Assembly (NCBI GenBank): GCA_045653945.1
Contig: JAZOML010000066.1
Coordinates: 9,900-73,899, forward strand
DNA from: Eubacteriales bacterium
GTDB taxonomy: Bacteria; Bacillota; Clostridia; Oscillospirales; CAG-272
Length of the DNA stretch: 64,000 nucleotides
Direction: 5' to 3'
Shown here: one piece after another, positions 1-46,118 of the stretch
Layout of the letters: the number at the start of each line of letters is the position of its first letter
Position numbering within the stretch: position 1 is the first letter of the stretch
The notes under the pieces: model-generated
What the model was told of the DNA's origin: nothing
What the model saw: only the letters and a program-made list of their open reading frames with translations
Databases searched by the model: none
Translations under genes and position numbers: made by a program

Positions 1-1
1 G

Positions 2-379
2 ACGACCTTGAAGCAGGCACTTAGGGGAGAAACGATACGCTACGAAAAAACACAGTATATGCTGTATGAGGATTGGCTTATTGACTCACCCGGTGAATAC
101 GCCGAGGTACATGGCCTCAGTGCCGCACTTGCAATTTACTCCTATGAGGCGGACGTGGTCGCAATGCTGATTTCGGCTGATGACGATTACTCACTGTTTC
201 CGCCAAACTGTACTCAAATGATAAACAGAGAGGTTATAGGAATTGTAACGAAGATAGATAAAGCGCCGCCCGAAAGAGCAGAGAGCTGGCTCAGACTCTC
301 AGGGTGCGAGAAAATCTTCAAAATAGACTCCCATACAGGCGCGGGAATTAAAGAACTGAAAAAATATTTAAAAAAATAA
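2..379 (+). CDS. EutP/PduV-family small GTPase (BMC-associated), 5' end outside the window
   Basis: The frame is open to the window edge. The first residues, TTLKQALRGE, are the tail of a GKTTL P-loop. DSPGEY and IVTKID motifs match EutP/PduV. The TTG at 8 is therefore internal, not the start. Confidence 0.8.
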   Translation, partial: TTLKQALRGETIRYEKTQYMLYEDWLIDSPGEYAEVHGLSAALAIYSYEADVVAMLISADDDYSLFPPNCTQMINREVIGIVTKIDKAPPERAESWLRLSGCEKIFKIDSHTGAGIKELKKYLKK

Positions 380-404
380 TAAAATCCAAAAAGGAGAACA
401 AAAA

Positions 405-1199
405 ATGGTAAACGAGTACGAAATCAAAAAACAGATATGCGACATCGGTAAGCGTATCTACAATAAGGGAATGGTTGCATCTAACGACGGTAACATCTCC
501 GTTAAGCTTAACGACAACGAATTTCTTTGCACCCCCACAGGCGTATCCAAGGGCTTTATGACACCCGAATACATCTGTAAGGTTGACCGCGACGGAAAGG
601 TAATTCAGGCAAACAGAGGCTTTAAGCCCTCTTCTGAAATCAAAATGCATATGAGAGTTTATAAGGAGCGTCCCGACGTTAACTCCGTTGTTCACGCTCA
701 CCCCCTTTATGCAACCTCCTTCGCTATCGCAGGAATTCCGCTCACCGAGCCGATTATGCCTGAGGCAGTTATCGCTCTTGGCTGTGTTCCGATAGCTGAG
801 TACGGCACACCCTCCACTGAGGAAATCCCCGATGCAGTATCGAAGTACCTGCAGCACTACGATGCAGTTCTTCTTGCAAACCACGGCGCACTTTCCTTCT
901 CGGATAGCCTTCTTAACGCATATCACAAGATGGAGTCCCATGAGTTCTACGCTCAACTCCTTTATCAGTCCAAGATGCTCGGCGGCCCCAAGCAACTCAC
1001 CGACTCTCAGGTACAAAGACTTTACGAGATTCGCCGTCAGTTCGGTCTTAAGGGTAAGCACCCCGCAGACATCTGCCCCAATGCTCAGGCAGGTAAGCCC
1101 AGCTGCCACGGTTGCGGCGGTCATTGCTCCGATAAGGGCGCAGACGCTGATACCGTTGCAATGGTAACCAAGCTCGTTCTTGAGGCTCTCGGTAAATAA
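405..1199 (+). CDS. Class II (FucA/RhaD/AraD-type) sugar-phosphate aldolase with a C-terminal Cys/His-rich segment and an amphipathic tail
   Basis: 264 aa. NDGNISV, SSEIKMH and VVHAHP motifs are typical of class II aldolases. RBS AAGGAGAA lies upstream. About 45 extra C-terminal residues end in DTVAMVTKLVLEALGK. Confidence 0.88.
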   Translation: MVNEYEIKKQICDIGKRIYNKGMVASNDGNISVKLNDNEFLCTPTGVSKGFMTPEYICKVDRDGKVIQANRGFKPSSEIKMHMRVYKERPDVNSVVHAHPLYATSFAIAGIPLTEPIMPEAVIALGCVPIAEYGTPSTEEIPDAVSKYLQHYDAVLLANHGALSFSDSLLNAYHKMESHEFYAQLLYQSKMLGGPKQLTDSQVQRLYEIRRQFGLKGKHPADICPNAQAGKPSCHGCGGHCSDKGADADTVAMVTKLVLEALGK

Positions 1200-1201
1200 G
1201 T

Positions 1202-1672
1202 ATGACTGAAAACGAGATAAGAGAAATTGTCAAAAAAGCTCTTGCCTCGGTAAAACCCGATAAAAGCGAAATGACACTCGCTCTCGCCGAAAGAATATGC
1301 ACAGCAGTTGAAGGATACGCCAAAAAGATGGGCGTTAACGCAGTTGTTTGTGTGTCCGACGGCGCAGGAAATCCAAAGCTCGTAAAGAGTATGGACGATG
1401 CCTACATAGCAAGCTATGACGTAGCGGTAAATAAAGCCTTTACGGTAGTAGCGCTTAAAATGTCCACGAAAACCTTAAAGCCTATGGCACAGCCGGGCGG
1501 TAGCCTTTACGGAATACAGTTCACAAATGGCGGACGGATAGTGATATTCGGCGGCGGTGAGCCTCTTACCGTAAACGGTAAGATTATAGGCGGACTCGGT
1601 GTAAGCGGCGGAAGTGAGGAGCAGGATACTGAACTTGCTCGTTTGGGTAAAGAGTTTTTTGACAGTATATAA
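1202..1672 (+). CDS. GlcG/HbpS/PduO-C-like (DUF336) putative haem-binding protein
   Basis: 156 aa. The GGGEPL..NGKIIGGLGVSGGSEEQD motif is characteristic of DUF336. The gene starts 3 nt after the aldolase stop. The N-terminus MTENEIREIVKKALASV is amphipathic. Confidence 0.75.
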   Translation: MTENEIREIVKKALASVKPDKSEMTLALAERICTAVEGYAKKMGVNAVVCVSDGAGNPKLVKSMDDAYIASYDVAVNKAFTVVALKMSTKTLKPMAQPGGSLYGIQFTNGGRIVIFGGGEPLTVNGKIIGGLGVSGGSEEQDTELARLGKEFFDSI

Positions 1673-1688
1673 TGAAAGGAAGAAAAAG

Positions 1689-2879
1689 ATGAATTCAGCT
1701 GATATCGAAAAGATTGTCAGACAGGTTCTTGAAAACCTCGGTGATGCTCCCGCACAGAAAAAGGCGGCAGGTCCTATCCCGAGCAAATCAAGAGTTGCAA
1801 TGCTGACAAAGCTTGAACACTTCGACATACAGGAATATCCTATCCCCGAGCTTGGTGATGACGATATACTTGTAAAGGTCGAGGGCTGCGGTGTCTGTGG
1901 AACAGACGCGCACGAATTCAAGCGAGATCCGTTCTCACTTATCCCCGTTGTTCTCGGACACGAGGGAACGGGTGAAATCGTTAAAATGGGTAAGAACGTA
2001 AAGAAGGACAGTGCAGGAAAGCCTCTTGCCGTTGGCGATAAGGTTGTTACCTGTATGATCTTCAAGGATAACCCCGATATAACGATGTTCGACTTAAATA
2101 AACAAAACGTTGGAGGCGCAGACGTTTACGGACTTCTGCCCGATGACGATAAAAAGCTTAACGGTTGGTTTGCCGATTACATACTTGTTCGCGGCGGCTC
2201 AACCATATTCAACGTAAGCGACCTTGACCTTGATAGCAGAATACTTATTGAGCCCTGTGCGGTTCTTATCCACGCAGTTGAAAGAGCAAAGACAACAGGT
2301 ATTCTCCGCTTCAATTCAAGAGTTGTAGTTCAGGGCTGCGGACCTATCGGTCTTATTTGTATAGCTGTTCTTCGTACAATGGGTATTGAAAATATCGTTG
2401 CGGTAGACGGTGAAAATAAACGCCTTGAATTTGCAAAGCTTATGGGAGCTACACAAACTGTAAACTTTAAGGAGCATAAGGGCGTTGAGGCTCTTGCAGG
2501 TGCAGTACAAAACGCATTTGGCGGATACCTTGCGGATTTTGCCTTCCAGTGCACAGGCTCACCTGTTGCTCACGCAAATATCTATAAGTTCATCAGAAAC
2601 GGCGGCGGACTTTGTGAGCTTGGCTTCTTCATAAACGGCGGCGATGCTCAAATTAATCCCCACTTTGATATTTGTGCAAAGGAAATTACAACAGTCGGCT
2701 CTTGGGTATACACCCTGCGCGACTACGTAACCACCTTTGATTTCTTAAAGAGAGCAAAGGGAATAGGACTTCCCCTAGAAAAGCTTATTACTCATAAATA
2801 TCCCCTTGATAAGATAAACGAAGCTCTTGAAACCAACCTTAAAATGGAAGGTCTTAAGATAGCGATAGTAAACGAATAA
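1689..2879 (+). CDS. Zn-dependent MDR-family alcohol/polyol dehydrogenase with an N-terminal encapsulation-like peptide
   Basis: Start placed at ATG 1689, preceded by RBS AAAGGAAG. The ORF-track start at 1614 overlaps the previous gene. Motifs: GCGVCGTD, GHEGTGEIV, and Rossmann GCGPIGL. Confidence 0.85.
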   Translation: MNSADIEKIVRQVLENLGDAPAQKKAAGPIPSKSRVAMLTKLEHFDIQEYPIPELGDDDILVKVEGCGVCGTDAHEFKRDPFSLIPVVLGHEGTGEIVKMGKNVKKDSAGKPLAVGDKVVTCMIFKDNPDITMFDLNKQNVGGADVYGLLPDDDKKLNGWFADYILVRGGSTIFNVSDLDLDSRILIEPCAVLIHAVERAKTTGILRFNSRVVVQGCGPIGLICIAVLRTMGIENIVAVDGENKRLEFAKLMGATQTVNFKEHKGVEALAGAVQNAFGGYLADFAFQCTGSPVAHANIYKFIRNGGGLCELGFFINGGDAQINPHFDICAKEITTVGSWVYTLRDYVTTFDFLKRAKGIGLPLEKLITHKYPLDKINEALETNLKMEGLKIAIVNE

Positions 2880-2891
2880 GGGTGATACGCT

Positions 2892-3206
2892 ATGGGAAAA
2901 GCGACAGGAATAATTGAGGTCTACGGACTTGCCTGCGCCTTTGCCGCACTTGATGCGGGCTGTAAGGCGGCGGACGTAACCGTAGAAACCTTTGATAAAA
3001 ATAAGCCGGGAAATGCAGACGCTCTGCCAGTACCGCTTATCGTTCTTATTAAGTTCAGAGGAACGGTAGACAACGTAACAGCGGCAATCGAGGCGGCGGA
3101 AAGAACGGCAAATTCACTTACCGGTGTTGTTTCAAAGCATATAATCGCCAACACCGAAGACTCAACCGAAAAAATGTTGAAGCTTAATGCTTTTGATAAG
3201 AAATAA
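2892..3206 (+). CDS. Divergent BMC-H shell protein (single BMC domain) with an enlarged pore loop
   Basis: 104 aa. It aligns with the neighbouring BMC-H proteins (GIIEVYGL..AALDAGCKAADV... / ..GTVDNVTAAIEAA). The usual K-I-G-S-G pore loop is replaced by DKNKPGNADALPVP. Confidence 0.75.
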   Translation: MGKATGIIEVYGLACAFAALDAGCKAADVTVETFDKNKPGNADALPVPLIVLIKFRGTVDNVTAAIEAAERTANSLTGVVSKHIIANTEDSTEKMLKLNAFDKK

Positions 3207-3239
3207 TTAAGAAAATTTAAAGAAAAGAGGAAATAAAAA

Positions 3240-3518
3240 ATGGCACTTCAGGCACTTGGAATGGTAGAAACCAGAGGTTTAGTAGCAGCAATCGAGGCTG
3301 CTGATGCAATGGTAAAGGCAGCAGAGGTACAGCTTATCGGTACCGAGAAGATCGGTAGCGGACTCGTAAGCGTAATGGTAAGAGGCGACGTTGGAGCAGT
3401 AAAGGCTGCAACCGAGGCAGGAAGCGTTGCGGCATCTAAGCTCGGTGAGCTTGTTGCGGTACACGTAATTCCCCGTCCCCACGCTGATGTAGAGAAGATT
3501 CTCCCCACTCTTGACTAA
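3240..3518 (+). CDS. BMC-H shell protein (PduA/EutM/CcmK type)
   Basis: 92 aa. [53 protein letters not shown] is a canonical BMC hexamer sequence. Confidence 0.95.
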
Positions 3519-3678
3519 GTCCTGTAAAAATTCCCCAATACGTCGTTGCTTCCTTGTGAGCAGCTCGGCTTACGCCAAGTAAGCTCTCGCTTTGCTCCCT
3601 GCGTCGCGCCTCGTCTTGAGAAATTTTTAGGCGGACTAATAAGGACAATTATGAAAATAGCATAATTTTGGAGGAACT

Positions 3679-3972
3679 ATGAAATCACTTGGCTTTGTCG
3701 AGGTCAGCGGAACTACGGCAGCAATAGACGCGCTTGATATTATGTGTAAAAGCGCAGAGGTCAGACTGATAAGCTGGGAAAGAAAGCTTGGAGGTCGCCT
3801 TGTAACTCTCATAATAGAAGGCGATGTTTCGGCAGTCAAGGCGGCGATAGAGAACGCAGATGCGCACTGTATCAAAAAGCCCTGTGCCGTAGCGGTGATA
3901 GCAAGACCTCACGCAGAAACCGTTCGTCTTGTGGAATTATCCGCATCACGTTTAAAGAAAAACAAAAAATAA
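3679..3972 (+). CDS. Divergent BMC-H shell protein with a basic pore loop and Lys-rich tail
   Basis: 97 aa. The BMC domain reads LGFVEVSGTTAAIDALDIMCKSAEV..GDVSAVKAAIE..IARPH. The pore loop is ERKLGGR. The C-terminal tail is RLKKNKK. RBS GGAGGAA. Confidence 0.85.
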   Translation: MKSLGFVEVSGTTAAIDALDIMCKSAEVRLISWERKLGGRLVTLIIEGDVSAVKAAIENADAHCIKKPCAVAVIARPHAETVRLVELSASRLKKNKK

Positions 3973-4004
3973 TAAATAAAAACAAAATTTGGAGGTAACT
4001 CAAA

Positions 4005-4282
4005 ATGGCACTTCAGGCACTTGGAATGGTAGAAACCAGAGGTTTAGTAGCAGCAATTGAGGCTGCAGATGCAATGGTAAGGCAGCAGAGGTACAGCTTA
4101 TCGGTACCGAAAAGATCGGTAGCGGACTTGTAAGCGTAATGGTAAGAGGCGACGTTGGAGCAGTTAAGGCTGCAACCGAGGCAGGCAGCACCGCTGCAAG
4201 CAGACTCGGCGAGCTTGTTGCAGTACACGTAATTCCCCGTCCCCACGCTGACGTTGAGAAAATATTACCTACTTTAGATTAA
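4005..4282 (+). pseudogene. Frameshifted BMC-H paralog (1-nt deletion)
   Basis: Near-identical at nucleotide level to 3240-3518 and 4354-4632. At 4076-4083 it reads GGTAAGGC where copy 1 reads GGTAAAGGC. The reading frame then stops at TAA 4131-4133. The total span is 278 nt rather than 279. The ORF track shows no + ORF of 60 aa or more here. Confidence 0.8.
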
Positions 4283-4353
4283 TTTCAGTGGGTTGATTTT
4301 TCAAACTAACATAACAATAAAAAAATTAAAAATACTTATGGAGGTAACTCAAA

Positions 4354-4632
4354 ATGGCACTTGAAGCACTTGGAATGGTAGAAACCAGAGGTCTTGTTGC
4401 AGCAATCGAAGCAGCAGACGCAATGGTAAAGGCAGCAAACGTAGAGCTCATCGGAACCGAAAAGATCGGTAGCGGACTCGTATCCGTTATGGTAAGAGGC
4501 GACGTTGGAGCAGTTAAGGCTGCAACCGAGGCAGGAAGCGCAGCTGCAAGCAGACTCGGCGAAATCGTTGCAGTACACGTAATTCCCCGCCCCCACGCTG
4601 ATGTTGAGAAGATTCTTCCCACATTAGACTAA
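4354..4632 (+). CDS. BMC-H shell protein (PduA/EutM/CcmK type)
   Basis: 92 aa and almost identical to the 3240 product. It has the same RBS context (GGAGGTAACTCAAAATG) as the frameshifted copy. Confidence 0.95.
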
Positions 4633-4792
4633 TTAAAAATGCAAACGGCTTTGTGCGGCTTCCTTTATAGGAAGTCGCATAGGTCGGGCACAAAACTAAA
4701 CGAATAATGCCGTTTTGTTTTGTGCAATACACTCGGAAATAAATTTTTGCAAGTGCGTTGCAAAAAACAAAACAAAAAACAGGAGAAAAATT

Positions 4793-5068
4793 ATGATTAT
4801 AGGAAAAGTAGTAGGAAGCGTTGTTTCTACCGATAAGGACCCAAAGCTTGTCGGCTTTAAGTTTATGATAGTTGAGGCTCTTGCGGAAACCTCAAATATG
4901 AAAAGAATAGTTGCGGTTGACGACGTTGGAGCAGGAATTGGCGAAATCGTTCTCGTTGCAACCGGAAGCGCGGCAAGACTCGGTTGTAATGATCCCTCGG
5001 CACCCGTAGATGCGGCAATAGTAGGAATTATTGACAACGGAATGGCGGGAGTACCCGATTTAAAATAA
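4793..5068 (+). CDS. BMC-P vertex (pentamer) protein, EutN/CcmL/PduN family
   Basis: Start at ATG 4793 after RBS AGGAG (4781). MIIGKVVGSVVSTDKDPKLVGFKFMIV...VDAAIVGIID is typical of EutN/CcmL. The longer ORF-track start lacks an RBS. Confidence 0.9.
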   Translation: MIIGKVVGSVVSTDKDPKLVGFKFMIVEALAETSNMKRIVAVDDVGAGIGEIVLVATGSAARLGCNDPSAPVDAAIVGIIDNGMAGVPDLK

Positions 5069-5087
5069 TTAAATAAGGAAAAAATCA

Positions 5088-6410
5088 ATGGAACTTAAAG
5101 ACCTAAAAAGGCTTTTAAAGGACTGCGGAGTAGTTGGAACGGGTGGCGCAGGCTTCCCGACCTACGCAAAGCTTAGTGATACCGTTGATACCGTTATCCT
5201 CAACTGTGCGGAGTGTGAGCCGCTGCTCAGAGTACACCGTCAGGCGCTTGAAATTCACGTTAGCGAGATACTTTCCGCTTTTAATGAGATACTTTCGGCA
5301 ACGGGTGCAAAGAAGGGAATAATTGCCCTGAAAAAGCACTACAAGGGCGCAATATCGGCGCTTGAAGCGGAGCTTTCAGAATACCCGAAAATCTCTCTTT
5401 GTAAAATGGAATCGGTCTATCCCGCCGGTGATGAGGTAATACTCGTCAAGCGTGTAACGGGTAGAACTATAAACCCCGGCGACCTTCCGGGTTCCGTCGG
5501 AGTTACCGTATGTAACGTTGAAACGGTATATAACGTATATAATGCGCTTCACGGCAAACCCGTAACCCACAAATACGTTACGGTAGCAGGTGAGGTTGCA
5601 AATCCGATAACTGTATACGCCCCTGTTGGTATGAGCGTTTCAGAGCTTGTCAAATGCGCAGGCGGAGAAACCACAGACGAGCCCGTATACATTTCGGGCG
5701 GCCCGATGATGGGAAAAATAGTCAGTCCTTACTCAGCTATAACAAAAACCACAAATGCGATAATCGTTTTACCTGAAACGCACAACGTGGTAATGAATAA
5801 AAAAAGAAACGGCAAGGTAAATCTTCGCCGTACAATGTCGGTTTGCTGTCAGTGTCATACCTGCACCTACCTTTGCTCAAGACACGTTGCGGGCTACCCA
5901 GTTGAGCCTCATATGGTAATGCGTGTGCTTTCAAACGGCGGTAGAGGAGATGCAAGTTGTATAGCGGGAGCAGTATTCTGCTCAGGCTGCGGACTTTGCG
6001 AAACCTACTCCTGCCCTCAGGGACTTTCCCCAAGAGCTTTAATTGACGAAATCAAGGCTCAGGCAAAGGCGAACGGCATAATGCCGCCAAGAGGAATTAA
6101 GGCAAAGGAACACACCGAACACGAGGAGTACCGCAAGGTATCGGTTGAAAGACTCACAAGTCGCCTCGGACTAAAAAAATACGATAAGAACGCACCTGTA
6201 ACCTCGATTAGTGAGCCAAGCTCGGTTAAAATTGAGTTTTCGCAGCATATCGGAGTACCGGCAAAATCGGTTGTAGCCGTTGGCGATAAGGTCAAAAAGG
6301 GTGATATTATCGGTGTGTCAGATGAAAAGGGACTTGGCGTAAATATTCACGCCTCAATTGACGGTACCGTAACCGATATCACACAAAGATACATAAAAAT
6401 TGAAAAATAA
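5088..6410 (+). CDS. pduS: PduS/RnfC-like NAD(P)H-FMN iron-sulfur flavoprotein
   Basis: 440 aa. It has a GTGGAGFPTYAKL nucleotide/FMN motif and two ferredoxin-type Cys clusters (CCQCHTCTYLC and CSGCGLCETYSCP). The C-terminus carries a barrel-sandwich-like GDKVKKGDIIG segment. Confidence 0.8.
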   Translation: MELKDLKRLLKDCGVVGTGGAGFPTYAKLSDTVDTVILNCAECEPLLRVHRQALEIHVSEILSAFNEILSATGAKKGIIALKKHYKGAISALEAELSEYPKISLCKMESVYPAGDEVILVKRVTGRTINPGDLPGSVGVTVCNVETVYNVYNALHGKPVTHKYVTVAGEVANPITVYAPVGMSVSELVKCAGGETTDEPVYISGGPMMGKIVSPYSAITKTTNAIIVLPETHNVVMNKKRNGKVNLRRTMSVCCQCHTCTYLCSRHVAGYPVEPHMVMRVLSNGGRGDASCIAGAVFCSGCGLCETYSCPQGLSPRALIDEIKAQAKANGIMPPRGIKAKEHTEHEEYRKVSVERLTSRLGLKKYDKNAPVTSISEPSSVKIEFSQHIGVPAKSVVAVGDKVKKGDIIGVSDEKGLGVNIHASIDGTVTDITQRYIKIEK

Positions 6411-6436
6411 CCCTTACGGGAAAGGAATAATCAGAG

Positions 6437-6982
6437 ATGAAAAAAGCTCTTGGAATGATTGAATTTAAAACGGTAGCATCGGGTATAACCGCAACCGACG
6501 TAATGCTTAAAACGGCTGAGGTCGAGGTTGTAACGGCAGGCCCCGTATGTCCCGGAAAATACATAGCCACAATAGCAGGCGAGATTAGTGCAGTTAAGGC
6601 ATCTATCGAGGCGGCGGAAAAATACAATCCGTCAATGCTTATAGATAAATTTCTGCTCGGTAACCCTCACGAAACCGTTCAGCCCGCAATTTGCGGCTCT
6701 CTTGAAGTCAAAAATAAGGGTGCAATAGGTATCATAGAAACCTATACGGCGGCATCGGCTGTCGTTGCGGCGGATACCGCAGCAAAAACCGCTATCGTTG
6801 ACCTTATTGAGGTACGTCTTGCAAAGGGTATGTGCGGTAAATCCTACGTTATCCTAACAGGTAGCGTTTCCTCGGTAACTGCGGCTATTGACAGAGCAAA
6901 GGCGGGTGTTGAGGACGGACTACTTCTTGATACCTCGGTAATCGCAGGTCCTGATGAACGCTTATGGGAATCAATTCTTTAA
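6437..6982 (+). CDS. pduT: BMC-T (tandem BMC-domain) shell protein, PduT-like
   Basis: 181 aa with two BMC domains (ALGMIEFKTVASGI... and AIGIIETYTAASAV...). A single Cys sits at residue 38 (GPVCPGKY), the position of the pore 4Fe-4S ligand in PduT. Confidence 0.85.
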   Translation: MKKALGMIEFKTVASGITATDVMLKTAEVEVVTAGPVCPGKYIATIAGEISAVKASIEAAEKYNPSMLIDKFLLGNPHETVQPAICGSLEVKNKGAIGIIETYTAASAVVAADTAAKTAIVDLIEVRLAKGMCGKSYVILTGSVSSVTAAIDRAKAGVEDGLLLDTSVIAGPDERLWESIL

Positions 6983-7006
6983 AATAAACGAAAGGTAGAA
7001 AAAACC

Positions 7007-7768
7007 GTGCTTGCAATAGAAAGAAAGCGTGAGATACTTTCGCGTCTTGCATCAGATGGTAAGGTAATAGTATCCGAGCTTGCCAAGGAATTCGGCGTAA
7101 CCGAGGAAACCGTGCGCCGCGACCTTGAAAAGCTTGACAGCGAGGGACTTGCTTATAAAATTTACGGCGGAGCAGTATCAAGAAAAAGTGAAACTCTTGA
7201 CCTGCCGTATAGCGTAAGAGTTGCGGTAAACGTTGAAGAAAAAGAGGTTATATCGGACCTTGTTTCGCAGTTTGTAAAAGACGGCGACAGACTGATGCTT
7301 GACTCAAGCTCAACCGCAATATATATTGTCAAAAAGCTCAAAAATAAGAAAAACCTTACTATTATCACAAACTCGGTAAAAATTTTGCTTGAGCTTTCCG
7401 ATAAGCCTGATTTTACGGTGCTTTGTACGGGTGGCAGCCTCAAAGAAGGCTCGCTTTCGCTTACAGGCTCGTCGGCTGAGAAGATGATAAGCTCCTATCA
7501 CGTTGATTTTGCGATATGCTCCTGCAAGGGAATAGATATGTCGCTGGGGGTTACCGACTCAAGCGAAAAGGACGGTCAAATAAAGCAGGCAATGTTTGCC
7601 TCGGCTGACAAAAAGCTCCTTGCCCTTGACAGCGGTAAATTTGATAATAAATCCTTTGTTAAGTTATGCGACGTAAAGGATCTCAATATGATAGTAACAA
7701 ACGCATCTCCAAGCGAAGCGTGGCAAACCTATTGCCGCGAGCACGGAGTTCAGCTTATTTATAAATAA
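7007..7768 (+). CDS. DeoR-family transcriptional regulator
   Basis: GTG start. The N-terminal HTH reads VSELAKEFGVTEETVRRDLEKL. The C-terminal part is a DeoR-type sugar-phosphate sensor domain. 253 aa. Confidence 0.9.
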   Translation: MLAIERKREILSRLASDGKVIVSELAKEFGVTEETVRRDLEKLDSEGLAYKIYGGAVSRKSETLDLPYSVRVAVNVEEKEVISDLVSQFVKDGDRLMLDSSSTAIYIVKKLKNKKNLTIITNSVKILLELSDKPDFTVLCTGGSLKEGSLSLTGSSAEKMISSYHVDFAICSCKGIDMSLGVTDSSEKDGQIKQAMFASADKKLLALDSGKFDNKSFVKLCDVKDLNMIVTNASPSEAWQTYCREHGVQLIYK

Positions 7769-7786
7769 CCGAAAGGATTTTCGAAT

Positions 7787-8986
7787 ATGAAAATATTAGT
7801 TTTAAATGCTGGTAGCTCATCTCTTAAATATCAGCTTTTTGATATGGATAACGGCGACGTAAAGGCAAAGGGTAACTGCGAGAGAATAGGAGCAGGCGGA
7901 ACAATAACACATAAAGTACCGAACACTGAGCCTTATTGTGAGGAAACCGATTTTCCGCATCACGGCGCAGCGCTTAAAAAGGTGCTTTCGCTTCTTGTTT
8001 CGGCTGAATACGGTGTTATTTCCGATATATCCGATATTGATGCGGTAGGACATAGAGTTGCACACGGCGGAGAACAGTGCAGACAGTCCACGAAGGTTAC
8101 CGAAAGCGTTATTAAATACCTTGAAACGATTGTTCCGATAAATCCGCTTCACGGCCCCCCTGCTATTGCAGGTATGAAGGCGTGTCTTGAGCTTATGCCA
8201 AAAACTCCTCAGGTAGCGGTATTTGATACCTCGTTCTATTCTGATATTAAGGATGAAAATTACGTCTACGCAATACCCTATGAATTCTATGAAAATGACC
8301 GAATTCGCCGTTACGGGTTTCACGGAACGTCGCATAGATACGTTAGCACCGAGGCGGCAAGGGTTGTCGGTAAACCCATAGAAGACCTCAAAATCATTAC
8401 CTGCCACCTTGGTAACGGTTCGTCAATAACAGCTGTTAAAAACGGTAAGGCAGTAGATACCTCAATGGGCTTTACCCCTCAGGAGGGAATTGCAATGGGT
8501 ACCCGCTCGGGTACAATCGACCCCACTGTTGTTACCTATATAATGAAAACAAAAGGATATACTCCCGAGCAAATGGAGGATATCCTCAACAAAAAGAGCG
8601 GTCTTCTTGGTGTTTCGGGTGTTTCAAATGACTGCCGTAACATTTCAGCTGCCGCAAACGAGGGCAATCACCGTGCCTCTCTTGCGATGAAAATACTTGT
8701 AAACGGTATTAAAAAGCTTATCGGAGCATACACCGCTGAGATGAACGGACTTGACGTTCTCGTTTTCACTGCGGGAATCGGTGAAAATCAGTGGAATATC
8801 AGAGAGGCGGTTTGTAGGGAAATGTCCTATCTCGGAATTGAGATTGACGAGGATAAAAACACTAATTTTGAAAGGGGCGTCCCCTTTAATATCACAAAAG
8901 ACGGAGCAAAAGTTCAGACGTGGATAATACCCACTGACGAGGAATTTATGATAGCTCAAGACACAAAAAGACTTGCTTTTGAATAA
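7787..8986 (+). CDS. ackA: Acetate (short-chain acyl) kinase
   Basis: 399 aa. Motifs: MKILVLNAGSSSLKYQLF, GHRVAHGG, FHGTSHRYV. Confidence 0.93.
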   Translation: MKILVLNAGSSSLKYQLFDMDNGDVKAKGNCERIGAGGTITHKVPNTEPYCEETDFPHHGAALKKVLSLLVSAEYGVISDISDIDAVGHRVAHGGEQCRQSTKVTESVIKYLETIVPINPLHGPPAIAGMKACLELMPKTPQVAVFDTSFYSDIKDENYVYAIPYEFYENDRIRRYGFHGTSHRYVSTEAARVVGKPIEDLKIITCHLGNGSSITAVKNGKAVDTSMGFTPQEGIAMGTRSGTIDPTVVTYIMKTKGYTPEQMEDILNKKSGLLGVSGVSNDCRNISAAANEGNHRASLAMKILVNGIKKLIGAYTAEMNGLDVLVFTAGIGENQWNIREAVCREMSYLGIEIDEDKNTNFERGVPFNITKDGAKVQTWIIPTDEEFMIAQDTKRLAFE

Positions 8987-9001
8987 GCGGAGGAAATAAA
9001 A

Positions 9002-10447
9002 ATGGCAAACTTCACTGAAGCCGAAATCAAAGAAATAGTAAATAAGGTACTCGCAGGCGTTTCGGCTGCGCCAAGTACCGCTGCATATACAAGCACAACC
9101 TATAACGGTAGACGCCTTATCGGTGTGTATTCCGATATGAACGAGGCAATAGACGCCGCAGAAAGAGGTTATAAAGCAGTGCGCTCAATGACCGTTGAGC
9201 AAAGAGAAAAAATAATTACCGAAATACGTCGCTTGACCCGTTTGGAAGCACCCGTAATGGCTGAAATGGGCGTTGCGGAAACAAAAATGGGTAAGGTAGA
9301 GCATAAGAGATTAAAGCATATTCTTGTTGCTGATAAGACACCCGGAACCGAGGATATCGTATCCGAAGCAAAGACGGGTGATAATGGTCTTACGCTTACC
9401 GAAATGGCTCCTTTTGGAGTTGTTGGTGCGATTACACCAAGTACAAACCCTTCAGAAACGGTAATTTGTAACTCAATCGGTATGATAGCGGCAGGAAATG
9501 GAGTTGTATTCAACCCTCACCCCGGAGCAATCTGCGTATCGAATTACGCAGTTGACTTGGTTAACAGAGCCTCTGCTGCTGCCGGCGGTCCTGAGGTGCT
9601 CGTTTGCTCAATGGATAAGCCTACACTCGATAGTGCTGCTATAATGCAATCTCATCCCAAAATCAAGCTTTTAGTATGTACGGGTGGCCCGGGAGTTGTT
9701 AAAGCAGTTCTTTCCTCAGGTAAAAAAGCAATCGGTGCGGGTGCGGGAAATCCCCCCGTTATCGTTGACGATACCGCCGATGTCCGTAAGGCGGCGAAGG
9801 ATATTATTGACGGCTGTACCTTTGATAATAACCTACCGTGTATAGCTGAAAAAGAGGTGTTTGCATTTGATAGCATCGCAACCGAGCTTATAAACGAAAT
9901 GCAAAGAAACGGAGCATATCTTATCACAAGAGAACAGGCTGAAAAGCTTATCCCCGTTGTACTTAATGAAAAAACAGGCAAAAACGGCAAAGTATCCAAG
10001 GTTGTAAGCCGTGATTGTGTAGGACGTGATGCCGACGTAATTCTTGCGAAAATCGGCATTAACGTTGGTAAGGAAGTACGTTGTATTATTTGCGAAACCG
10101 ACTTTATGCATGATTTCGTTCAGCACGAGCTTATGATGCCTATTCTTCCTATTGTCAGAGTCCGTGATATCGAAGAAGCGATTGACCTTGCAGTTAAAGC
10201 CGAGCACGGCAATAGACACACCGCACATATGCACTCTAAAAACGTTGATAGACTTTCAGCATTTGCAAAAGCAGTTGAAACCACGATTTTCGTAAAGAAT
10301 GCACCTTCGTATGCGGGTATAGGCTTTGGCGGTGAGGGACATACAACCTTTACCATAGCAGGACCGACAGGCGAGGGAATTACGTCAGCTCGCTCCTTTA
10401 CAAGAAAGCGTAGATGCGTAATGGCTGAGAATTTTAGAATAATTTAA
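9002..10447 (+). CDS. CoA-acylating aldehyde dehydrogenase (PduP/EutE type) with an N-terminal encapsulation-like peptide
   Basis: 481 aa. It carries the catalytic NNLPCIAEKE motif and GAGAGNPP. The N-terminus MANFTEAEIKEIVNKVLAGV is followed by a low-complexity linker. Confidence 0.9.
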   Translation: MANFTEAEIKEIVNKVLAGVSAAPSTAAYTSTTYNGRRLIGVYSDMNEAIDAAERGYKAVRSMTVEQREKIITEIRRLTRLEAPVMAEMGVAETKMGKVEHKRLKHILVADKTPGTEDIVSEAKTGDNGLTLTEMAPFGVVGAITPSTNPSETVICNSIGMIAAGNGVVFNPHPGAICVSNYAVDLVNRASAAAGGPEVLVCSMDKPTLDSAAIMQSHPKIKLLVCTGGPGVVKAVLSSGKKAIGAGAGNPPVIVDDTADVRKAAKDIIDGCTFDNNLPCIAEKEVFAFDSIATELINEMQRNGAYLITREQAEKLIPVVLNEKTGKNGKVSKVVSRDCVGRDADVILAKIGINVGKEVRCIICETDFMHDFVQHELMMPILPIVRVRDIEEAIDLAVKAEHGNRHTAHMHSKNVDRLSAFAKAVETTIFVKNAPSYAGIGFGGEGHTTFTIAGPTGEGITSARSFTRKRRCVMAENFRII

Positions 10448-10457
10448 GGTGATAAAA

Positions 10458-11108
10458 ATGAAATATACCGAAAAAGAAATAAAGGATATGGTATCAAAGG
10501 TGCTTGATGCGGTAAACGGTTCAAAAAACGAGCAGGGTAACGTACCCGTCGGCGTTTCTAACCGCCATATACACCTTACGCGTGAGCACGTTGAAATACT
10601 TTTCGGAAAAGGCTACAACCTTACAAAATTAAAGGATTTAAGCCAACCCGGTCAGTACGCCTGTAAGGAAACGCTTACGATTATCGGACCGTCAATGAGA
10701 GCTATTGAGGGTGTCCGTGTGCTCGGCCCCGAAAGAAAACGTTCGCAGGTTGAAATTTCAAGAACGGATAGCTTTACCCTCAAGGTAAAACCGCCTGTTC
10801 GTGAGTCGGGCGACCTTAACGGAAGCGCACCGATAACTATAATCGGTCCTAAAGGTATCGTAACACTTAACGAGGGCTGTATAATCGCAAACCGCCATAT
10901 ACATATGAGCGAGGACGAGGGCGCGGCATTCGGAGTTAAAGACGGAGAATACTGCGACGTCGAGCTTTACGGCGAAAGAAAATCGCTATTTTATGACGTT
11001 CAAATCCGAGTACATAAGGATTTCCGTCTTGAAATGCACATTGATACCGACGACGCAAATGCGTCAGGCGTTGGAAACGGTGCAATGGTGAAATTAATAA
11101 AAAGATAA
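10458..11108 (+). CDS. pduL: Phosphate acyltransferase PduL (PTAC)
   Basis: Start at ATG 10458 after RBS AAGGTGA. Two PduL repeats are present (VGVSNRHIHLT and IIANRHIHMS). The N-terminus MKYTEKEIKDMVSKVLDAV is amphipathic. Confidence 0.9.
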   Translation: MKYTEKEIKDMVSKVLDAVNGSKNEQGNVPVGVSNRHIHLTREHVEILFGKGYNLTKLKDLSQPGQYACKETLTIIGPSMRAIEGVRVLGPERKRSQVEISRTDSFTLKVKPPVRESGDLNGSAPITIIGPKGIVTLNEGCIIANRHIHMSEDEGAAFGVKDGEYCDVELYGERKSLFYDVQIRVHKDFRLEMHIDTDDANASGVGNGAMVKLIKR

Positions 11109-11210
11109 ATTACGCAGTGGCGTAAAGCTCCTTCCCTTTTGGGGAAGGGGGACTGCAAACTCGTAGAGTTTGTGGTGGATGAGGCAATCAAACGCTGATT
11201 TAAATATTAA

Positions 11211-11240
11211 AAAACGGCACCGTTAAAACGGCGCCGTTTT
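11211..11240. terminator. Bidirectional intrinsic terminator between the convergent pduL and DUF1540 genes
   Basis: AAAACGGC...GCCGTTTT stem with A-run and T-run flanks on both strands. Confidence 0.7.
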
Positions 11241-11250
11241 CATTTGTATA

Positions 11251-11451
11251 TTACTGCTTGGGTGCAAAGGTTGCACAGTCTGTGCACTTGCTCTCGGTAG
11301 GATTACCCTCGTGGGTAACAACCTGAATTTTGTCAAGAGAGCAGTAGTTTTCGTTTGTGCAATGGTACTTGCACTGAGTTACGGTGCAGCCGATAGACTT
11401 ATTAGCGGTGTCGCATTTTCCACTTGAGCAGTAGTTTTGAGAATTGTTCAT
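11251..11451 (-). CDS. Small Cys-rich DUF1540-family protein
   Basis: 66 aa from the ATG at 11451, with RBS GAAAGGAAG. The repeated C-x-V-x-x-C-x-Y pattern (GCTVTQCKYHCTNENYCSLDKIQV) is typical of DUF1540. Confidence 0.7.
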   Translation of the reverse strand: MNNSQNYCSSGKCDTANKSIGCTVTQCKYHCTNENYCSLDKIQVVTHEGNPTESKCTDCATFAPKQ

Positions 11452-11701
11452 CTTGAAGCTTCCTTTCAATAAACATAATATTAAAGAAAACGGTTTTGCC
11501 CGATTTCATTTTTTATTATGCTCGGTTAGTGAAGAAAAAATACAAAAATATCTTGTGCAAAATGTACGAAAAAAATAATATATAGTTGTAAAAAAGGTAA
11601 AAGAAATTATTTATATATTAAAATTCATATTTTTTTAACAAACGAAAAGATTGTTTGTGGTAAAATATCACTGTAAAATAATCTCAAAAGGAGAAATATT
11701 C

Positions 11702-13264
11702 ATGAAAATGAAAAAAATGCTCGCTTGGTTACTCATCTTTGCGATGGCGTTTTCAGGTGTTGCCCTCACCTCTTGCGGTGATGAAAACAATAACCGCGAA
11801 AGAGTCGAAGTCGATGAGAGCGATCTTTCGCCGGCTTTTGATGAGGAGGCCAAATACTACGGTGGTAGGTTTAATATACTTACTGTAAACGACGGTTCGG
11901 TTGGACAGTACGGTAACGTACACGATATCGTAGCAGACGGAAACCTCGGTGATGCCGCTATCGTTAAGGTTGTAAGAGAGAGAAACCAACGTATTCAGGA
12001 CAACTTTGGAACTGAAATTAAACGTATAACCGATACTAATCCTCAAGAAAAGGCACAGACTGCTATAAACTCTAAGAGTAATACATACGATGCCTTTAGA
12101 TTTGAGGTAAGCAAATCCCTCACCGTTGCTCTAAATGGTGGTCTTCTTGACCTTAAGAACGAAGCAACGTATCTCGACCTCGAGGAGGATTGGTGGGACC
12201 AGGGTATCACTGATAACCTTATGCTTGCTGACGGCGTTTATATCGCTATCGGCGACCTAATGACAGGTGATAAGGACTCCACTTATATTACACTTTTCAA
12301 CGAAATGCTTCTCGGCACGAAGAACATTATTCCTACCAAGGAAGGTCAGACTCCCAGTGAGTATCTCTATGAGCTCACAATGGACGGCGTTGGTCAGGAG
12401 GGCGGACTTACAATGGAGCTTCTTATGCACTATGCACAGGAAAGCGCTAATGCACCTCGTGATGCAAGTAAGCCCCTTTGGAAAGTTGAAAACCAGACAC
12501 TTGCAGGTAACTACGGCTTTTATACTCAGCGCGATATGGCAAAGGTTATCCTCCTTGCAGGTGGATTTACCTCTACTAAGAAGGATGACGGTGAGCTTTC
12601 CGGACTTAAGTCCAACATTGACTCAACGTTTGCAGATGCTGTTAACGAAGTATGGAACTACTTCGGTAAGGTAACAGGCACGGCTTGGTTTGTAGACCTT
12701 GATGAACATCAGAAGAAGGAAGATGATTTCTGGAACCTTTGTGCTCGTGGTTCGTTCAAGGCTAACAAGGCAACCTTCTTTATGTGTCACGCTGCGACCA
12801 TCGACCTTATCCGTGATATGGATGAGGACTACGGTGTTCTTCCTATTCCGAAGCTTTATGACACCCAGACCGAGTATGCATCTACCCTTCAGTATATGAA
12901 CTGTCCCTGTATCACCGTTCCTAAGCGTAGCGGAAAGAACTTAAACGAAAAGTCTTCCTACATTCTTGAGGCAATGTGCTACTACTCCAGCCAGGAATAC
13001 GCAGGTGAGCAGAGCCTTAACTATAACTACTACAACAGAGTTATGAAGGCAAAGGGTGTTCGTGATGAGAACGCTTGGGGTGTTATCGACCTTATCTTTA
13101 ACAACCGTGTGTATGACCTCGGTTTTGCTCTTAACATTGGAAAAATCGACAGCGGAGTTATAGATGCCGCAACCGGAAAAAATACTGCTACATTTAACCA
13201 AAATAGTTATGATCAATTTGACTTAGAACTTAAAAATAAACTTGAAGTACTTCTTGGTTCCTAA
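11702..13264 (+). CDS. Extracellular solute-binding lipoprotein (sugar ABC-type SBP), no cognate permease adjacent
   Basis: Start at ATG 11702 after RBS AAAGGAGA. Signal peptide with lipobox LTS-C. About 520 aa, the size of large carbohydrate SBPs. The family call is by general resemblance only. Confidence 0.65.
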   Translation: MKMKKMLAWLLIFAMAFSGVALTSCGDENNNRERVEVDESDLSPAFDEEAKYYGGRFNILTVNDGSVGQYGNVHDIVADGNLGDAAIVKVVRERNQRIQDNFGTEIKRITDTNPQEKAQTAINSKSNTYDAFRFEVSKSLTVALNGGLLDLKNEATYLDLEEDWWDQGITDNLMLADGVYIAIGDLMTGDKDSTYITLFNEMLLGTKNIIPTKEGQTPSEYLYELTMDGVGQEGGLTMELLMHYAQESANAPRDASKPLWKVENQTLAGNYGFYTQRDMAKVILLAGGFTSTKKDDGELSGLKSNIDSTFADAVNEVWNYFGKVTGTAWFVDLDEHQKKEDDFWNLCARGSFKANKATFFMCHAATIDLIRDMDEDYGVLPIPKLYDTQTEYASTLQYMNCPCITVPKRSGKNLNEKSSYILEAMCYYSSQEYAGEQSLNYNYYNRVMKAKGVRDENAWGVIDLIFNNRVYDLGFALNIGKIDSGVIDAATGKNTATFNQNSYDQFDLELKNKLEVLLGS

Positions 13265-13280
13265 TATTTAATTTGATAAA

Positions 13281-13316
13281 AAAATCACCCTGCTCAGTTT
13301 GAGTGGGGTGATTTTT
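13281..13316 (+). terminator. Intrinsic terminator
   Basis: AAAATCACCC...GGGGTGATTTTT hairpin plus T-run directly after the SBP stop. Confidence 0.8.
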
Positions 13317-13492
13317 GGTTATAATTAAATAGCTGACAAATGGCAATTTTAAGTATCTGTATCTTTTAATTTGCTTTTTGCTTATCTGGGTAATATATTG
13401 TTAACAATTCGACGTTATTTTTGCAATGATTTTGTACTATACTATAAAAGACTATATTTATTAGTAAAAATTGCTTTTTAATGGAGAATTAT

Positions 13493-15202
13493 ATGAATCT
13501 GTATTTTAATTGGAAAAACCGTGTTCTTGATGATGCTGACCTTAATCGCGAGCTTGACGAAATTGAAGGAAATGAAAAAGAAATTTTTGAAAGATTCCGT
13601 TGCGACCTTGCGTTTGGTACAGGTGGACTTCGCGGTCTTATTGGTGCAGGAACCAACAGAATGAATATCTATACTGTCGGTAAAGCTACACAGGGACTTG
13701 CCGATTGCCTTAATATTCAGAATACATCAGGTAAGGAGCTTTCCGTTGCAATAGCCTATGATAGCAGAAATAAGGGTGAGCTTTTTGCTCGTCGCTGTGC
13801 ATCAATACTTGTTGCTAACGGAATTAAGGTTTATGTTTATTCCGAACTTGCTCCAACACCGGCGCTGTCCTTTGCAGTAAGATTCTATGGATGTGATGCA
13901 GGTATTTGTGTAACCGCAAGTCATAATCCGGCAGTTTATAACGGGTATAAGGTTTATGATGCCGTAGGTTGTCAGATTGGACCTGCTATGGCTGATGTTA
14001 TTCTTGCTCAAATGGACAAGACTGATATATTTGACGGTATAAAAATAAGCGATTATGAAAAAGCGGTAAAGGACGGAAAAATCGTTCTTGTTGATAAAGA
14101 GGTTTTTGAGGCGTTTTTTGAGTGCGTAAAGGGTGAAAGTCTTATCTCTGATGACGTTAGAAATGGCGATGCTCTCAAGATAGTCTATACCCCCTTAAAC
14201 GGCGCAGGAAGGCGCTCTGTTACAACAGTGCTCGCAAGTGAGCCTTGCTATGACGTAACCGTTGTTAAGGAACAGGAAATGCCGGACGGAAATTTCTCAA
14301 CCTGTCCATATCCAAACCCTGAAAATCCGCAGGCACTTGAGCTCGCTCTGGCTCTTTGTAAGAAAACCGATGCGGATATTATGATTGCAACCGATCCTGA
14401 CTGCGATAGATGTCGTGTTGCGGCAAAGACTACGGACGGTGAATATAAGGCTCTTTCGGGTAACGAAACAGGTATTCTGCTTCTTGATTATATTGCCAAA
14501 AGAAAAAATGAGCTTGGTACAATGCCCAAAAACCCCGTTGCAGTAACGACGATTGTTTCAACTGTTATGGCTGACAGGGTTGCCAAAAAGTACGGGATTG
14601 AAATGAGAAGGGTTCTCACAGGCTTTAAGTACATCGGAGAGCAGATAGGACTTCTTGAAAATGACGGACAGACCGACAGATACCTCTTTGGCTTTGAAGA
14701 AAGCTGTGGATACCTTTCCGGAGCTTACGTAAGGGATAAGGACGGAGTAAATGCCGCGCTTCTCGTAAGTGAAATGGCTCTCTATTATAAAAGGAAGGGA
14801 CTTACGCTCGTTAGTGCGTTTGAGGCGCTTTGCAAAGAGCTTGGATACTACAAGGAAGACCTTCTCAACTTCTCGTTTGAGGGTGCTGAGGGGGCTATAC
14901 GTATGAATGAAATCATAGAGGAGTTAAGAAATAATCCGCCTATGAGTATAGCCGGTGATAAGGTTGTAGACGTTAAGGACTACCACAAGGCAGGACTTCG
15001 CGAGGGAGAATTCAATGATGTAACAGGGCTTCCCGACTCCAACGTGCTTGAATTTAACACCGAATCAGGATATAAGGTTATTATCAGACCATCAGGTACT
15101 GAGCCTAAAATGAAAGCATACCTATCTGCAGTAGGTAAGAGCGCAGATGAGGCTCTTGACGTACTTGATAAAATTAGAAATGATAAATTTTTAAAGTTCT
15201 AA
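13493..15202 (+). CDS. Alpha-D-phosphohexomutase (phosphoglucomutase/phosphomannomutase)
   Basis: Active-site loop TASHNPAVYNGYKV and sugar-binding GFEESCGY. About 570 aa. ATG 13493 follows a GGAGA. An alternative ATG lies at 13481. Confidence 0.9.
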   Translation: MNLYFNWKNRVLDDADLNRELDEIEGNEKEIFERFRCDLAFGTGGLRGLIGAGTNRMNIYTVGKATQGLADCLNIQNTSGKELSVAIAYDSRNKGELFARRCASILVANGIKVYVYSELAPTPALSFAVRFYGCDAGICVTASHNPAVYNGYKVYDAVGCQIGPAMADVILAQMDKTDIFDGIKISDYEKAVKDGKIVLVDKEVFEAFFECVKGESLISDDVRNGDALKIVYTPLNGAGRRSVTTVLASEPCYDVTVVKEQEMPDGNFSTCPYPNPENPQALELALALCKKTDADIMIATDPDCDRCRVAAKTTDGEYKALSGNETGILLLDYIAKRKNELGTMPKNPVAVTTIVSTVMADRVAKKYGIEMRRVLTGFKYIGEQIGLLENDGQTDRYLFGFEESCGYLSGAYVRDKDGVNAALLVSEMALYYKRKGLTLVSAFEALCKELGYYKEDLLNFSFEGAEGAIRMNEIIEELRNNPPMSIAGDKVVDVKDYHKAGLREGEFNDVTGLPDSNVLEFNTESGYKVIIRPSGTEPKMKAYLSAVGKSADEALDVLDKIRNDKFLKF

Positions 15203-15232
15203 AAAGAATATATAAATGAAAAGAAGCCGGAA

Positions 15233-16309
15233 ATGGAAAGAGTAGCAATTATAATGGCAGGCGGCAGGGGTGAAAGACTTTGGCCTAAGAGCCGAAAGTC
15301 TTGCCCTAAGCAGTTTCTTTCTTTAGGCGGTGGAGATAAGTCACTTATAGTTCAAACGGTTGAGCGTATGAAAACGCTTACCGACATTAGCAAAATATTT
15401 ATAGTTACGGGCAGAGATTATTTTGATATAACTCACAGGCAGCTTCCCGCTTTGCCCGTAGAAAATATAATTTGCGAGCCAATGGGGAAGAATACTACCG
15501 CTTGTATTGGATATGCGTGTCAGATTATAAAAAAGAGAATGGGCGACGCTATAATGATGGTCGTTCCCTCTGACCACGTTATAAAAAATGTTGATGCGTT
15601 CAAATCAGACTTAAACAAGTGCTGTGAAATAGCAGAACGTGAAAAGCTAATAGTTACCGTCGGTATAACTCCGACAAAGCCTGAAACAGGATTTGGTTAT
15701 ATTAAGCTTTGTAAGGAAAAAGCGATAGAAAATACTACTTTGGCTTGGAAAATGGCAAAATTTGTCGAAAAACCTAACTTTAAGGTTGCGACAAAATATG
15801 TAAACTCAGGTAAGTATTTGTGGAATGCGGGAATGTTTGTTTTTCCTATTAGCTATATGCTGCGTTCCATTAAGAAATACTGTCCTCATAATGCAGCTTG
15901 TCTTACAAATATCGGCAAGGCGATTGGTAAAAAGAACGAGGCGCTTGTTACCTATAATATGTTTGAAAAAATGGAGTCTATATCCATTGACTATGCAGTT
16001 ATGGAGCACGTTCGGGGCAGCATAACCGTTCAGTCTACCTTTGATTGGAACGATGTTGGCACTTGGGCGGCAATTCCCGAAATACAAAAGTCTGATTCAA
16101 ATGGCAACTACGTTACAGGTGAGGTTGCGTCGTTTGAGAGTACAGGCAATATAGTTGAGCTTCCTAGCGGAAAACTACTTGCTCTGCTTGGTGTTAAAGA
16201 TATTATTGTTGTTGAAAGTGGCAACGCAACTCTTGTATGTCATAAGGACTATGCTCAACAAATAAAGGAAATAACCAAGCAGATAAGAGATAGGGCAGAG
16301 TATCTATGA
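15233..16309 (+). CDS. manC: Mannose-1-phosphate guanylyltransferase (no PMI domain)
   Basis: 358 aa. IMAGGRGERLWPKSR nucleotidyltransferase N-terminus and overall ManC-like layout. The stop overlaps the next start (ATGA at 16306). Confidence 0.8.
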   Translation: MERVAIIMAGGRGERLWPKSRKSCPKQFLSLGGGDKSLIVQTVERMKTLTDISKIFIVTGRDYFDITHRQLPALPVENIICEPMGKNTTACIGYACQIIKKRMGDAIMMVVPSDHVIKNVDAFKSDLNKCCEIAEREKLIVTVGITPTKPETGFGYIKLCKEKAIENTTLAWKMAKFVEKPNFKVATKYVNSGKYLWNAGMFVFPISYMLRSIKKYCPHNAACLTNIGKAIGKKNEALVTYNMFEKMESISIDYAVMEHVRGSITVQSTFDWNDVGTWAAIPEIQKSDSNGNYVTGEVASFESTGNIVELPSGKLLALLGVKDIIVVESGNATLVCHKDYAQQIKEITKQIRDRAEYL

Positions 16310-17487: not shown

Positions 17488-17507
17488 TTACCTGAGGCTT
17501 ATCCATT

Positions 17508-18701: not shown

Positions 18702-18724
18702 ATTTTCACACGAAAGGGCAGAGA

Positions 18725-19591: not shown

Positions 19592-19612
19592 CAGTGCCTG
19601 AAAGGATAATCA

Positions 19613-33188: not shown

Positions 33189-33221
33189 TTTATGTATCCT
33201 CCCAAAATTTATTATAATGTT

Positions 33222-42062: not shown

Positions 42063-42112
42063 AGTTTACCTTAATTTAAGTCCTTGCCCAATAGAGCAAG
42101 GACTTAAAGCTC

Positions 42113-46104: not shown

Positions 46105-46118
46105 AATGTTTTCCTTTC

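Follow-up and report, generated by a model that had tools for sequence, protein, structure and literature searches.

A bacterial microcompartment operon at the left edge of a Clostridia contig window, probably of the GRM5 type and cut inside eutP

The DNA analyzed here, referred to below as the window, is a stretch of 64,000 nucleotides of contig JAZOML010000066.1 from a Eubacteriales bacterium. Its left end (positions 1–11,108) is occupied by a single run of 16 co-oriented genes on the plus strand which according to Pfam encode the shell proteins and enzymes of a bacterial microcompartment (BMC); NCBIfam and PDB matches were added for selected proteins (Table 1). An earlier reading of the letters alone (the original prediction) had listed shell genes, a CoA-acylating aldehyde dehydrogenase (AldDH), PduL, an alcohol dehydrogenase (ADH), AckA, an aldolase, a DeoR regulator, PduS, a DUF336 protein and a EutP/PduV GTPase. 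All of these are real and the designation of the locus as a metabolosome is borne out, the number of genes being 16 and not 17. For the shell pentamer the ATG at position 4790 was taken as the start, because the Pfam match begins at residue 27 of the open reading frame (ORF) starting at 4715. The top NCBIfam match of the tandem BMC protein is eut_PduT, with a score under the cut-off of that model. Promoter and terminator scans gave background levels except for the hairpin 3′ of pduL, which probably terminates the operon and which together with a convergent small ORF marks its 3′ end.

Table 1. The microcompartment operon, with the genes upstream in the closest long relative in the last line (window coordinates except for that line; MDR, medium-chain dehydrogenase/reductase; BMC-H, BMC-T and BMC-P, hexameric, tandem and pentameric shell proteins; GRE, glycyl-radical enzyme; AE, its activating enzyme)
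Feature	Position	Strand	Basis and remarks
EutP/PduV GTPase	2–379	+	PF10662, E=2e-39, profile positions 15–143; 5′ end off the window edge
Class II FucA-like sugar-phosphate aldolase	405–1199	+	PF00596, E=6.5e-51
DUF336/HbpS-like (PduO C-terminal domain-like)	1202–1672	+	PF03928, E=1.9e-34
Zn-dependent MDR ADH (GRM5 'lactaldehyde reductase / propanol dehydrogenase')	1689 (probable start)–2879	+	PF08240 (ADH_N) and PF00107 (ADH_zinc_N); L100 orthologue 397 aa; PDB matches begin at aa ~36–46
BMC-H, divergent, 104 aa	2892–3206	+	PF00936, E=2.3e-17
BMC-H, PduA-like copy 1	3240–3518	+	PF00936, E=1.3e-28
BMC-H, 97 aa, EutK/EutM-like	3679–3972	+	PF00936, E=2.7e-21; NCBIfam EutK/EutM matches weak
BMC-H, PduA-like, frameshifted (1-nt deletion, ~4077–4080)	4006–4282	+	DNA alignment with paralogues and L100
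BMC-H, PduA-like copy 3	4354–4632	+	PF00936, E=9e-30
BMC-P vertex pentamer, EutN/PduN-like	4790–5068	+	PF03319 (EutN_CcmL), E=4.1e-30; L100 orthologue 91 aa
PduS-like flavin/Fe-S oxidoreductase	5088–6410	+	Complex1_51K, SLBB, Fer4_17, RnfC_N
BMC-T, PduT-like tandem BMC, VCPGK cysteine	6437–6982	+	PF00936, two stretches, E=3.9e-41
DeoR-family regulator	7007–7768	+	HTH_DeoR and DeoRC
Acetate/propionate kinase (AckA/PduW role)	7787–8986	+	PF00871, E=2.7e-141
CoA-acylating AldDH, PduP/EutE type	9002–10447	+	PF00171; NCBIfam PRK15398, 673 bits (cut-off 403)
PduL phosphotransacylase	10449–11108	+	PF06130, E=5.3e-78
GC-rich bidirectional hairpin, 14-pair stem	11210–11241		Terminator scan
L100 upstream genes	GRE 6315–8837; AE 8852–9643; BMC 9651–10001; EutP 10001–10420		L100 coordinates

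The left edge of the window cuts through the first of these genes. Full-length relatives of EutP have 139 aa, and since the copy in the window is devoid of the first 14 codons with the start codon (the P-loop is missing as well), the operon extends upstream of the window; base 1 aligns to position 10042 of L100, the closest long relative, which is within its EutP gene. A screen of the 64 kb with tblastn (E ≤ 1e-5) found neither a GRE nor its activase. Every ORF of at least 150 aa between 11 and 64 kb was annotated in addition, and PduCDE, EutBC and proteins similar to pyruvate formate-lyase (PFL) were absent from the window ORFs of this size. The sole ORF of GRE-like size (837 aa, 42113–44626, minus strand) is a glycogen phosphorylase and not a GRE. 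Thus the original prediction was correct in stating that the window holds no PduCDE, EutBC or GRE, and the cut at the left edge, which it had named as a caveat since a signature enzyme might lie upstream, accounts for this: the apparent absence of a GRE is almost certainly an effect of the window edge and not a trait of the locus.

This is seen when the relatives of the operon are compared. Using the aldolase as query against one genome per GTDB species (E ≤ 1e-3) we obtained at least 536 relatives, mostly metagenome-assembled genomes (MAGs) of Acutalibacteraceae, Oscillospiraceae or unclassified Clostridia, with the guts of yak, sheep, deer, goat, buffalo and horse as sources. The best 80 of these loci were surveyed for synteny by mapping the proteins of the window together with the upstream proteins of one relative (L004), whose GRE carries the PFL-like and Gly_radical domains and whose activase carries Radical_SAM and Fer4_12 according to Pfam. 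Sixty-five loci were informative, i.e., EutP immediately precedes their aldolase and they come with 4.4 kb or more of upstream sequence. In 64 of the 65 the order is GRE (~840 aa), activase (~264 aa), a permuted EutS/PduU-like BMC protein (~116 aa), EutP and aldolase, and downstream of it the order of the window is found (DUF336, Zn-ADH, BMC-H, PduA, BMC-H, one or more PduA, EutN, PduS, PduT, DeoR, AckA in part of the loci, AldDH, PduL). The one deviating locus, L042, has undergone rearrangement, and its contig starts with an activase fragment.

The closest relatives have the same arrangement. When the EutP fragment served as query in a protein search, full-length proteins with 94–98% identity were retrieved. 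L100, a contig of 113 kb, is collinear with the window gene for gene over the whole locus at 88–92% nucleotide identity, and its gene lengths (proteins of 264, 156, 397, 104, 92, 97, 92, 92, 91, 440, 181, 253, 399 and 481 aa) agree almost exactly with those of the window. Its GRE has 840 aa and its activase, which is without the ferredoxin insert, has 263 aa and ends ~400 nt before the equivalent of base 1 of the window. Three further contigs (L102, L103, L104) show the same layout of GRE, activase, BMC protein and EutP, the four being collinear with the window at 84–92% nucleotide identity, and all of the short contigs which are 88–93% identical to the window (L101, L105–L112) carry the BMC, activase or GRE gene upstream of EutP. 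The best PDB match of the L100 GRE, over the full length, is the B12-independent diol dehydratase of Roseburia inulinivorans (5I2A, 1228 bits); the glycerol dehydratase of Clostridium butyricum (1R8W), likewise independent of B12, comes second. On the NCBIfam level the GRE passes TIGR01774 and the activase TIGR02494, and the small upstream BMC protein is EutS/PduU-like. In none of L004, L100 and L102 did the 10 kb of upstream sequence contain PduCDE, PduGH or EutBC. Upstream of the GRE in L100 (1693–4071) and L102 (2407–4078) there are a divergently oriented gene of the Na+/H+ antiporter family, an AraC regulator and a 475-aa gene of the arabinose/fucose isomerase family; the latter could represent a linked sugar-isomerase step.

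We therefore regard positions 1–11,108 as the 3′ part (roughly 11 kb out of some 15 kb) of an operon of the GRM5 type (glycyl-radical-enzyme-associated microcompartment 5) which is cut inside eutP, and from the comparison of sequences we give this reading a probability of roughly 0.93. The host is taken to be an uncultured member of the Oscillospirales from the gut of a herbivore, similar to Acutalibacteraceae or Oscillospiraceae. Judging from the relatives, the missing 5′ part would encode a B12-independent 1,2-propanediol dehydratase of the GRE type with ~840 aa, a radical-SAM activase of ~263 aa and a permuted, EutS/PduU-like BMC-H protein of 116 aa.

The published descriptions of GRM5 fit the gene content well. 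These loci have been described as containing a DeoR regulator, PduS, a class II aldolase, a DUF336 protein and an unusual zinc-type ADH (Axen et al., PMC4207490), and have been defined by a GRE, its activase, a fuculose-phosphate aldolase (pfam00596) and a lactaldehyde reductase (pfam00107/pfam08240) (Ferlez et al., PMC6325248). PduS and PduT were present in 57 of 57 GRM5 loci, and the GRM5 activase is without the ferredoxin insert (PMC6325248). In the window we find the PF00596 aldolase with a C-terminal encapsulation peptide (EP), an ADH with PF00107 and PF08240 and not of the Fe type, PduS, PduT, the core of acylating AldDH and PduL, DeoR and DUF336. The defining pair itself, GRE (PF02901 and PF01228) and activase (PF04055), is known here from the loci of the relatives and not from the window. 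The Zn-dependent MDR enzyme, which the original prediction had considered unusual, is the norm in published GRM5 loci and for this reason diagnostic of the type (PMC4207490, PMC6325248).

Among the known systems the gene set is shared with the GRM5 loci of Clostridium phytofermentans (Cphy_1174–1187), with the fucose locus of R. inulinivorans and with those of Ruminococcus spp. The shared components are the FucA-like aldolase with its C-terminal EP, Zn-ADH, PduP-type AldDH, PduL, PduA-type BMC-H, EutN-type BMC-P, PduS, PduT and DeoR, and the nearest relatives add to the likeness with the 5′ GRE, the activase without ferredoxin insert and the PduU/EutS-like shell protein. The C. phytofermentans genes are induced 20–90-fold on fucose and rhamnose (PMC3557285). 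The gene order differs: in the window AldDH and PduL follow DeoR and AckA as the last genes of the operon, whereas C. phytofermentans has both beside the aldolase and before EutN, an order which we also found in two Lachnospiraceae relatives (L041 and L075). In comparison the window has extra genes for EutP, DUF336 and AckA, and more PduA paralogues, one of them frameshifted. The B12-dependent propanediol utilization (PDU) system has in common with the window the PduA-, PduN-, PduS-, PduT-, PduL-, PduP- and PduV-like components and the downstream chemistry from propionaldehyde via propionyl-CoA and propionyl phosphate to propionate. It differs in the dehydratase, since neither the window nor the upstream region of the relatives contains PduCDE/PduGH and the enzyme there is a GRE. 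The microcompartment of Planctomycetes and Verrucomicrobia (PVM; e.g., Planctomyces limnophilus) resembles the window in its class II aldolase, which forms lactaldehyde from fuculose phosphate or rhamnulose phosphate, its DeoR regulator and its acetate kinase (PMC4207490). In contrast to it the window has five BMC-H genes (four intact) and one BMC-T gene versus one BMC-P gene and a Zn-dependent MDR ADH, and because of this ratio of shell genes and the type of ADH we rejected a classification as PVM.

The likely substrate of the aldolase is L-fuculose-1-phosphate or L-rhamnulose-1-phosphate, as the original prediction had proposed; the catalytic and Zn-binding motifs KPSSE, VHAH and LLANHG are conserved with respect to the solved fuculose-1-phosphate aldolases. 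These are also the best PDB matches of the protein, covering only aa 6–216. The remaining 48 aa (aa 217–264, window 1053–1199) form a C-terminal extension consisting of a linker with four cysteines followed by an amphipathic terminal helix (DTVAMVTKLVLEALGK). The cysteines in this linker between the FucA-like core and the EP follow the pattern C-x10-C-x2-C-x3-C (ICPNAQAGKPSCHGCGGHC), and 94 of 95 relatives have at least four cysteines in this tail, whether or not their locus contains a GRE. A survey from 2015 described the aldolase linker as unconserved (PMC4594438). The four cysteines may constitute a metal or Fe-S site; that such a site serves cargo packaging or redox sensing appears very unlikely to us.

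Four further proteins have in common the N-terminal motif E-I-x-x-(I/M)-V-x-(K/Q)-(V/A)-L, namely DUF336 (NEIREIVKKALASV, hydrophobic-moment rank 2/143), Zn-ADH (ADIEKIVRQVLENL, rank 1/383, EP and linker), AldDH (AEIKEIVNKVLAGV) and PduL (KEIKDMVSKVLDAV, rank 1/203). By their sequence these amphipathic N-termini as well as the C-terminus of the aldolase resemble encapsulation peptides. AckA has no terminal extension and no EP-like terminus.

The presence of the proteins and their families were computed; the following reaction steps are taken from the published GRM5 model. Fuculose-1-phosphate or rhamnulose-1-phosphate would arise in the cytosol through the action of an isomerase and a kinase whose genes lie elsewhere and would be cleaved within the shell by the EP-tagged aldolase to dihydroxyacetone phosphate, which would exit, and L-lactaldehyde. 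The EP-tagged Zn-ADH is predicted to reduce the lactaldehyde to 1,2-propanediol with consumption of NADH, and the GRE encoded off the window would convert 1,2-propanediol to propionaldehyde. EP-tagged AldDH would then form propionyl-CoA and regenerate NADH, and EP-tagged PduL would form propionyl phosphate and recycle CoA. AckA, having no EP, is probably cytosolic and would convert propionyl phosphate to propionate with formation of ATP. Part of the propionaldehyde may also be turned into propanol by the Zn-ADH. PduS and PduT probably provide an electron route for the activation of the GRE, and DeoR would act as regulator of the operon.

The original prediction had proposed a different system, in which the aldolase is the only signature enzyme of a PVM-like metabolosome and lactaldehyde is dismutated by AldDH and ADH. 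The genome would then have no BMC-associated GRE, AldDH would form lactyl-CoA which PduL and AckA convert to lactate with gain of ATP, and Zn-ADH would form 1,2-propanediol which is excreted. This would agree with the absence of GRE, activase and PduCDE from the 64 kb, and PVM-like loci, which are without GRE and activase (Axen 2014; Sutter 2021), are a recognized type in gut Firmicutes (PMC4207490, PMC8217296). Moreover, four of the best 80 loci (L044, L047 at 10001–15740, L067 at 10001–20000, and L079) are by their gene content true GRE-less, PVM-like loci of Acutalibacteraceae MAGs, with aldolases 82–86% identical to that of the window and with unrelated housekeeping genes upstream, e.g., citrate synthase in L047 and 4-alpha-glucanotransferase in L067. 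All four, however, begin at the aldolase and are without EutP, the permuted BMC gene and the two divergent BMC-H genes, and Zn-ADH is present in L067 and absent from the other three, L047 being apparently without AldDH as well. The window does not fit this architecture because it has EutP, which runs off its left edge, Zn-ADH and both divergent BMC-H genes. As the GRE module is present in 64 of the 65 loci with EutP before the aldolase, an activase fragment being retained in the other, and also in the collinear contigs of 88–92% identity, we consider an aldolase-only, lactaldehyde-dismutating compartment highly unlikely, and neither the aldolase as only signature enzyme nor the dismutation scheme is supported. 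The original prediction had itself named a GRE diol dehydratase with activase immediately upstream as the finding that would speak against it, and these genes lie there in relatives sharing the EutP–aldolase junction including L100, L102, L103 and L104.

Several points nevertheless weigh against the GRM5 assignment. GRE and activase, though very probably present in this particular genome, are deduced from relatives whose nucleotide identity to the window does not exceed 93%. We found no exact matches to the aldolase and AldDH of the window; exact matches to PduA came only from contigs of up to 3.7 kb, none of which reaches upstream of eutP, and a metagenome scan with the fast-evolving DUF336 protein yielded only relatives of at most 72% identity. 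The four GRE-less aldolase loci belong to the same family, so loss of the GRE module happens in the lineage, and the source genome may have lost GRE and activase and kept eutP, as an aldolase-only compartment in transition from GRM5; this we judge to be very improbable. The specificity for the substrate, the packaging into the shell and the direction in which the Zn-ADH works are predictions, and the 64 kb contain no genes for a fucose/rhamnose isomerase, kinase or transporter. C. phytofermentans is the only case in which induction by fucose and rhamnose together with compartment formation and production of propionate and propanol has been demonstrated (PMC3557285).

A further possibility is that the operon is a GRM5 locus in decay which no longer gives rise to a working compartment. 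Such erosion would be indicated by the one-base deletion in a PduA copy and by a spacer that appears displaced in comparison with L100. DNA alignment with the paralogues and with the intact L100 orthologue (13920–14198) showed that a single A is missing in the run GGTAAAGG and that the copy has no other lesion, so a sequencing error in the homopolymer, in which case the copy would be no pseudogene, or a very recent mutation is as likely as decay. The spacer (3519–3676, ~158 nt) follows the first PduA copy, where it is absent in L100, and is homologous to L100 14544–14664, i.e., to the region after the last PduA copy of that contig, an arrangement that points to recombination between the PduA paralogues of the tandem array. 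The spacer is also present in two contigs which are 96–98% identical to the window (L081 and L082). None of the remaining 15 genes is damaged or shortened and all closely resemble their orthologues; two PduA copies of the identical class remain, relatives having between two and four. A non-functional locus is in our view very improbable. A structured RNA or a repeat in the spacer was rejected, as the folding score was not significant (z = −1.15), the window has no second copy and Rfam gave no match there.

The locus of the window is thus very probably an ordinary, further example of the known GRM5 organelle converting fucose and rhamnose to propionate. With a close aldolase homologue in at least 536 species-level genomes this type of locus is evidently very common in the Oscillospirales of herbivore guts. 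The comparison contains a useful correction, namely that the edge of a window or contig can mimic a GRE-less locus, and it shows that the architecture with a GRE can be recognized by eutP, accompanied by the permuted BMC gene, ahead of the aldolase. The coexistence of closely related GRE-containing and GRE-less loci in one family supports the published idea that the PVM-like loci of Firmicutes arose from GRM5.

Convergent with the operon and sharing the hairpin there is a cysteine-rich ORF of 72 aa (11251–11469, minus strand), which may be DUF1540-like. It is followed by a 537-aa ORF (11651–13264, plus strand) without Pfam domain, which has a lipoprotein-type signal (…ALTSCGD), is absent from the flanks of all relatives fetched and may encode a divergent solute-binding lipoprotein. 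The other large ORFs of the window are housekeeping and polysaccharide genes (glycosyltransferases, an ABC-2 exporter, purine genes, a glycogen operon, GroEL, FtsZ and a GyrB/ParE-like protein). A ZMP/ZTP riboswitch (RF01750, 33251–33332, minus strand, 56.6 bits) is situated in the expected context upstream of an IMP-cyclohydrolase-like gene (32466–33293) and AICARFT (31270–32454). The glycogen operon (40239–50501, minus strand) is complete with branching enzyme, two ADP-glucose pyrophosphorylase subunits, glycogen synthase, glycogen phosphorylase and an enzyme of the alpha-amylase family. Between 50000 and 52100 the GC content dips to 0.354 as compared to ~0.44 around it; this part comprises an intergenic region and a 309-aa ORF (51104–52033) with no Pfam match.

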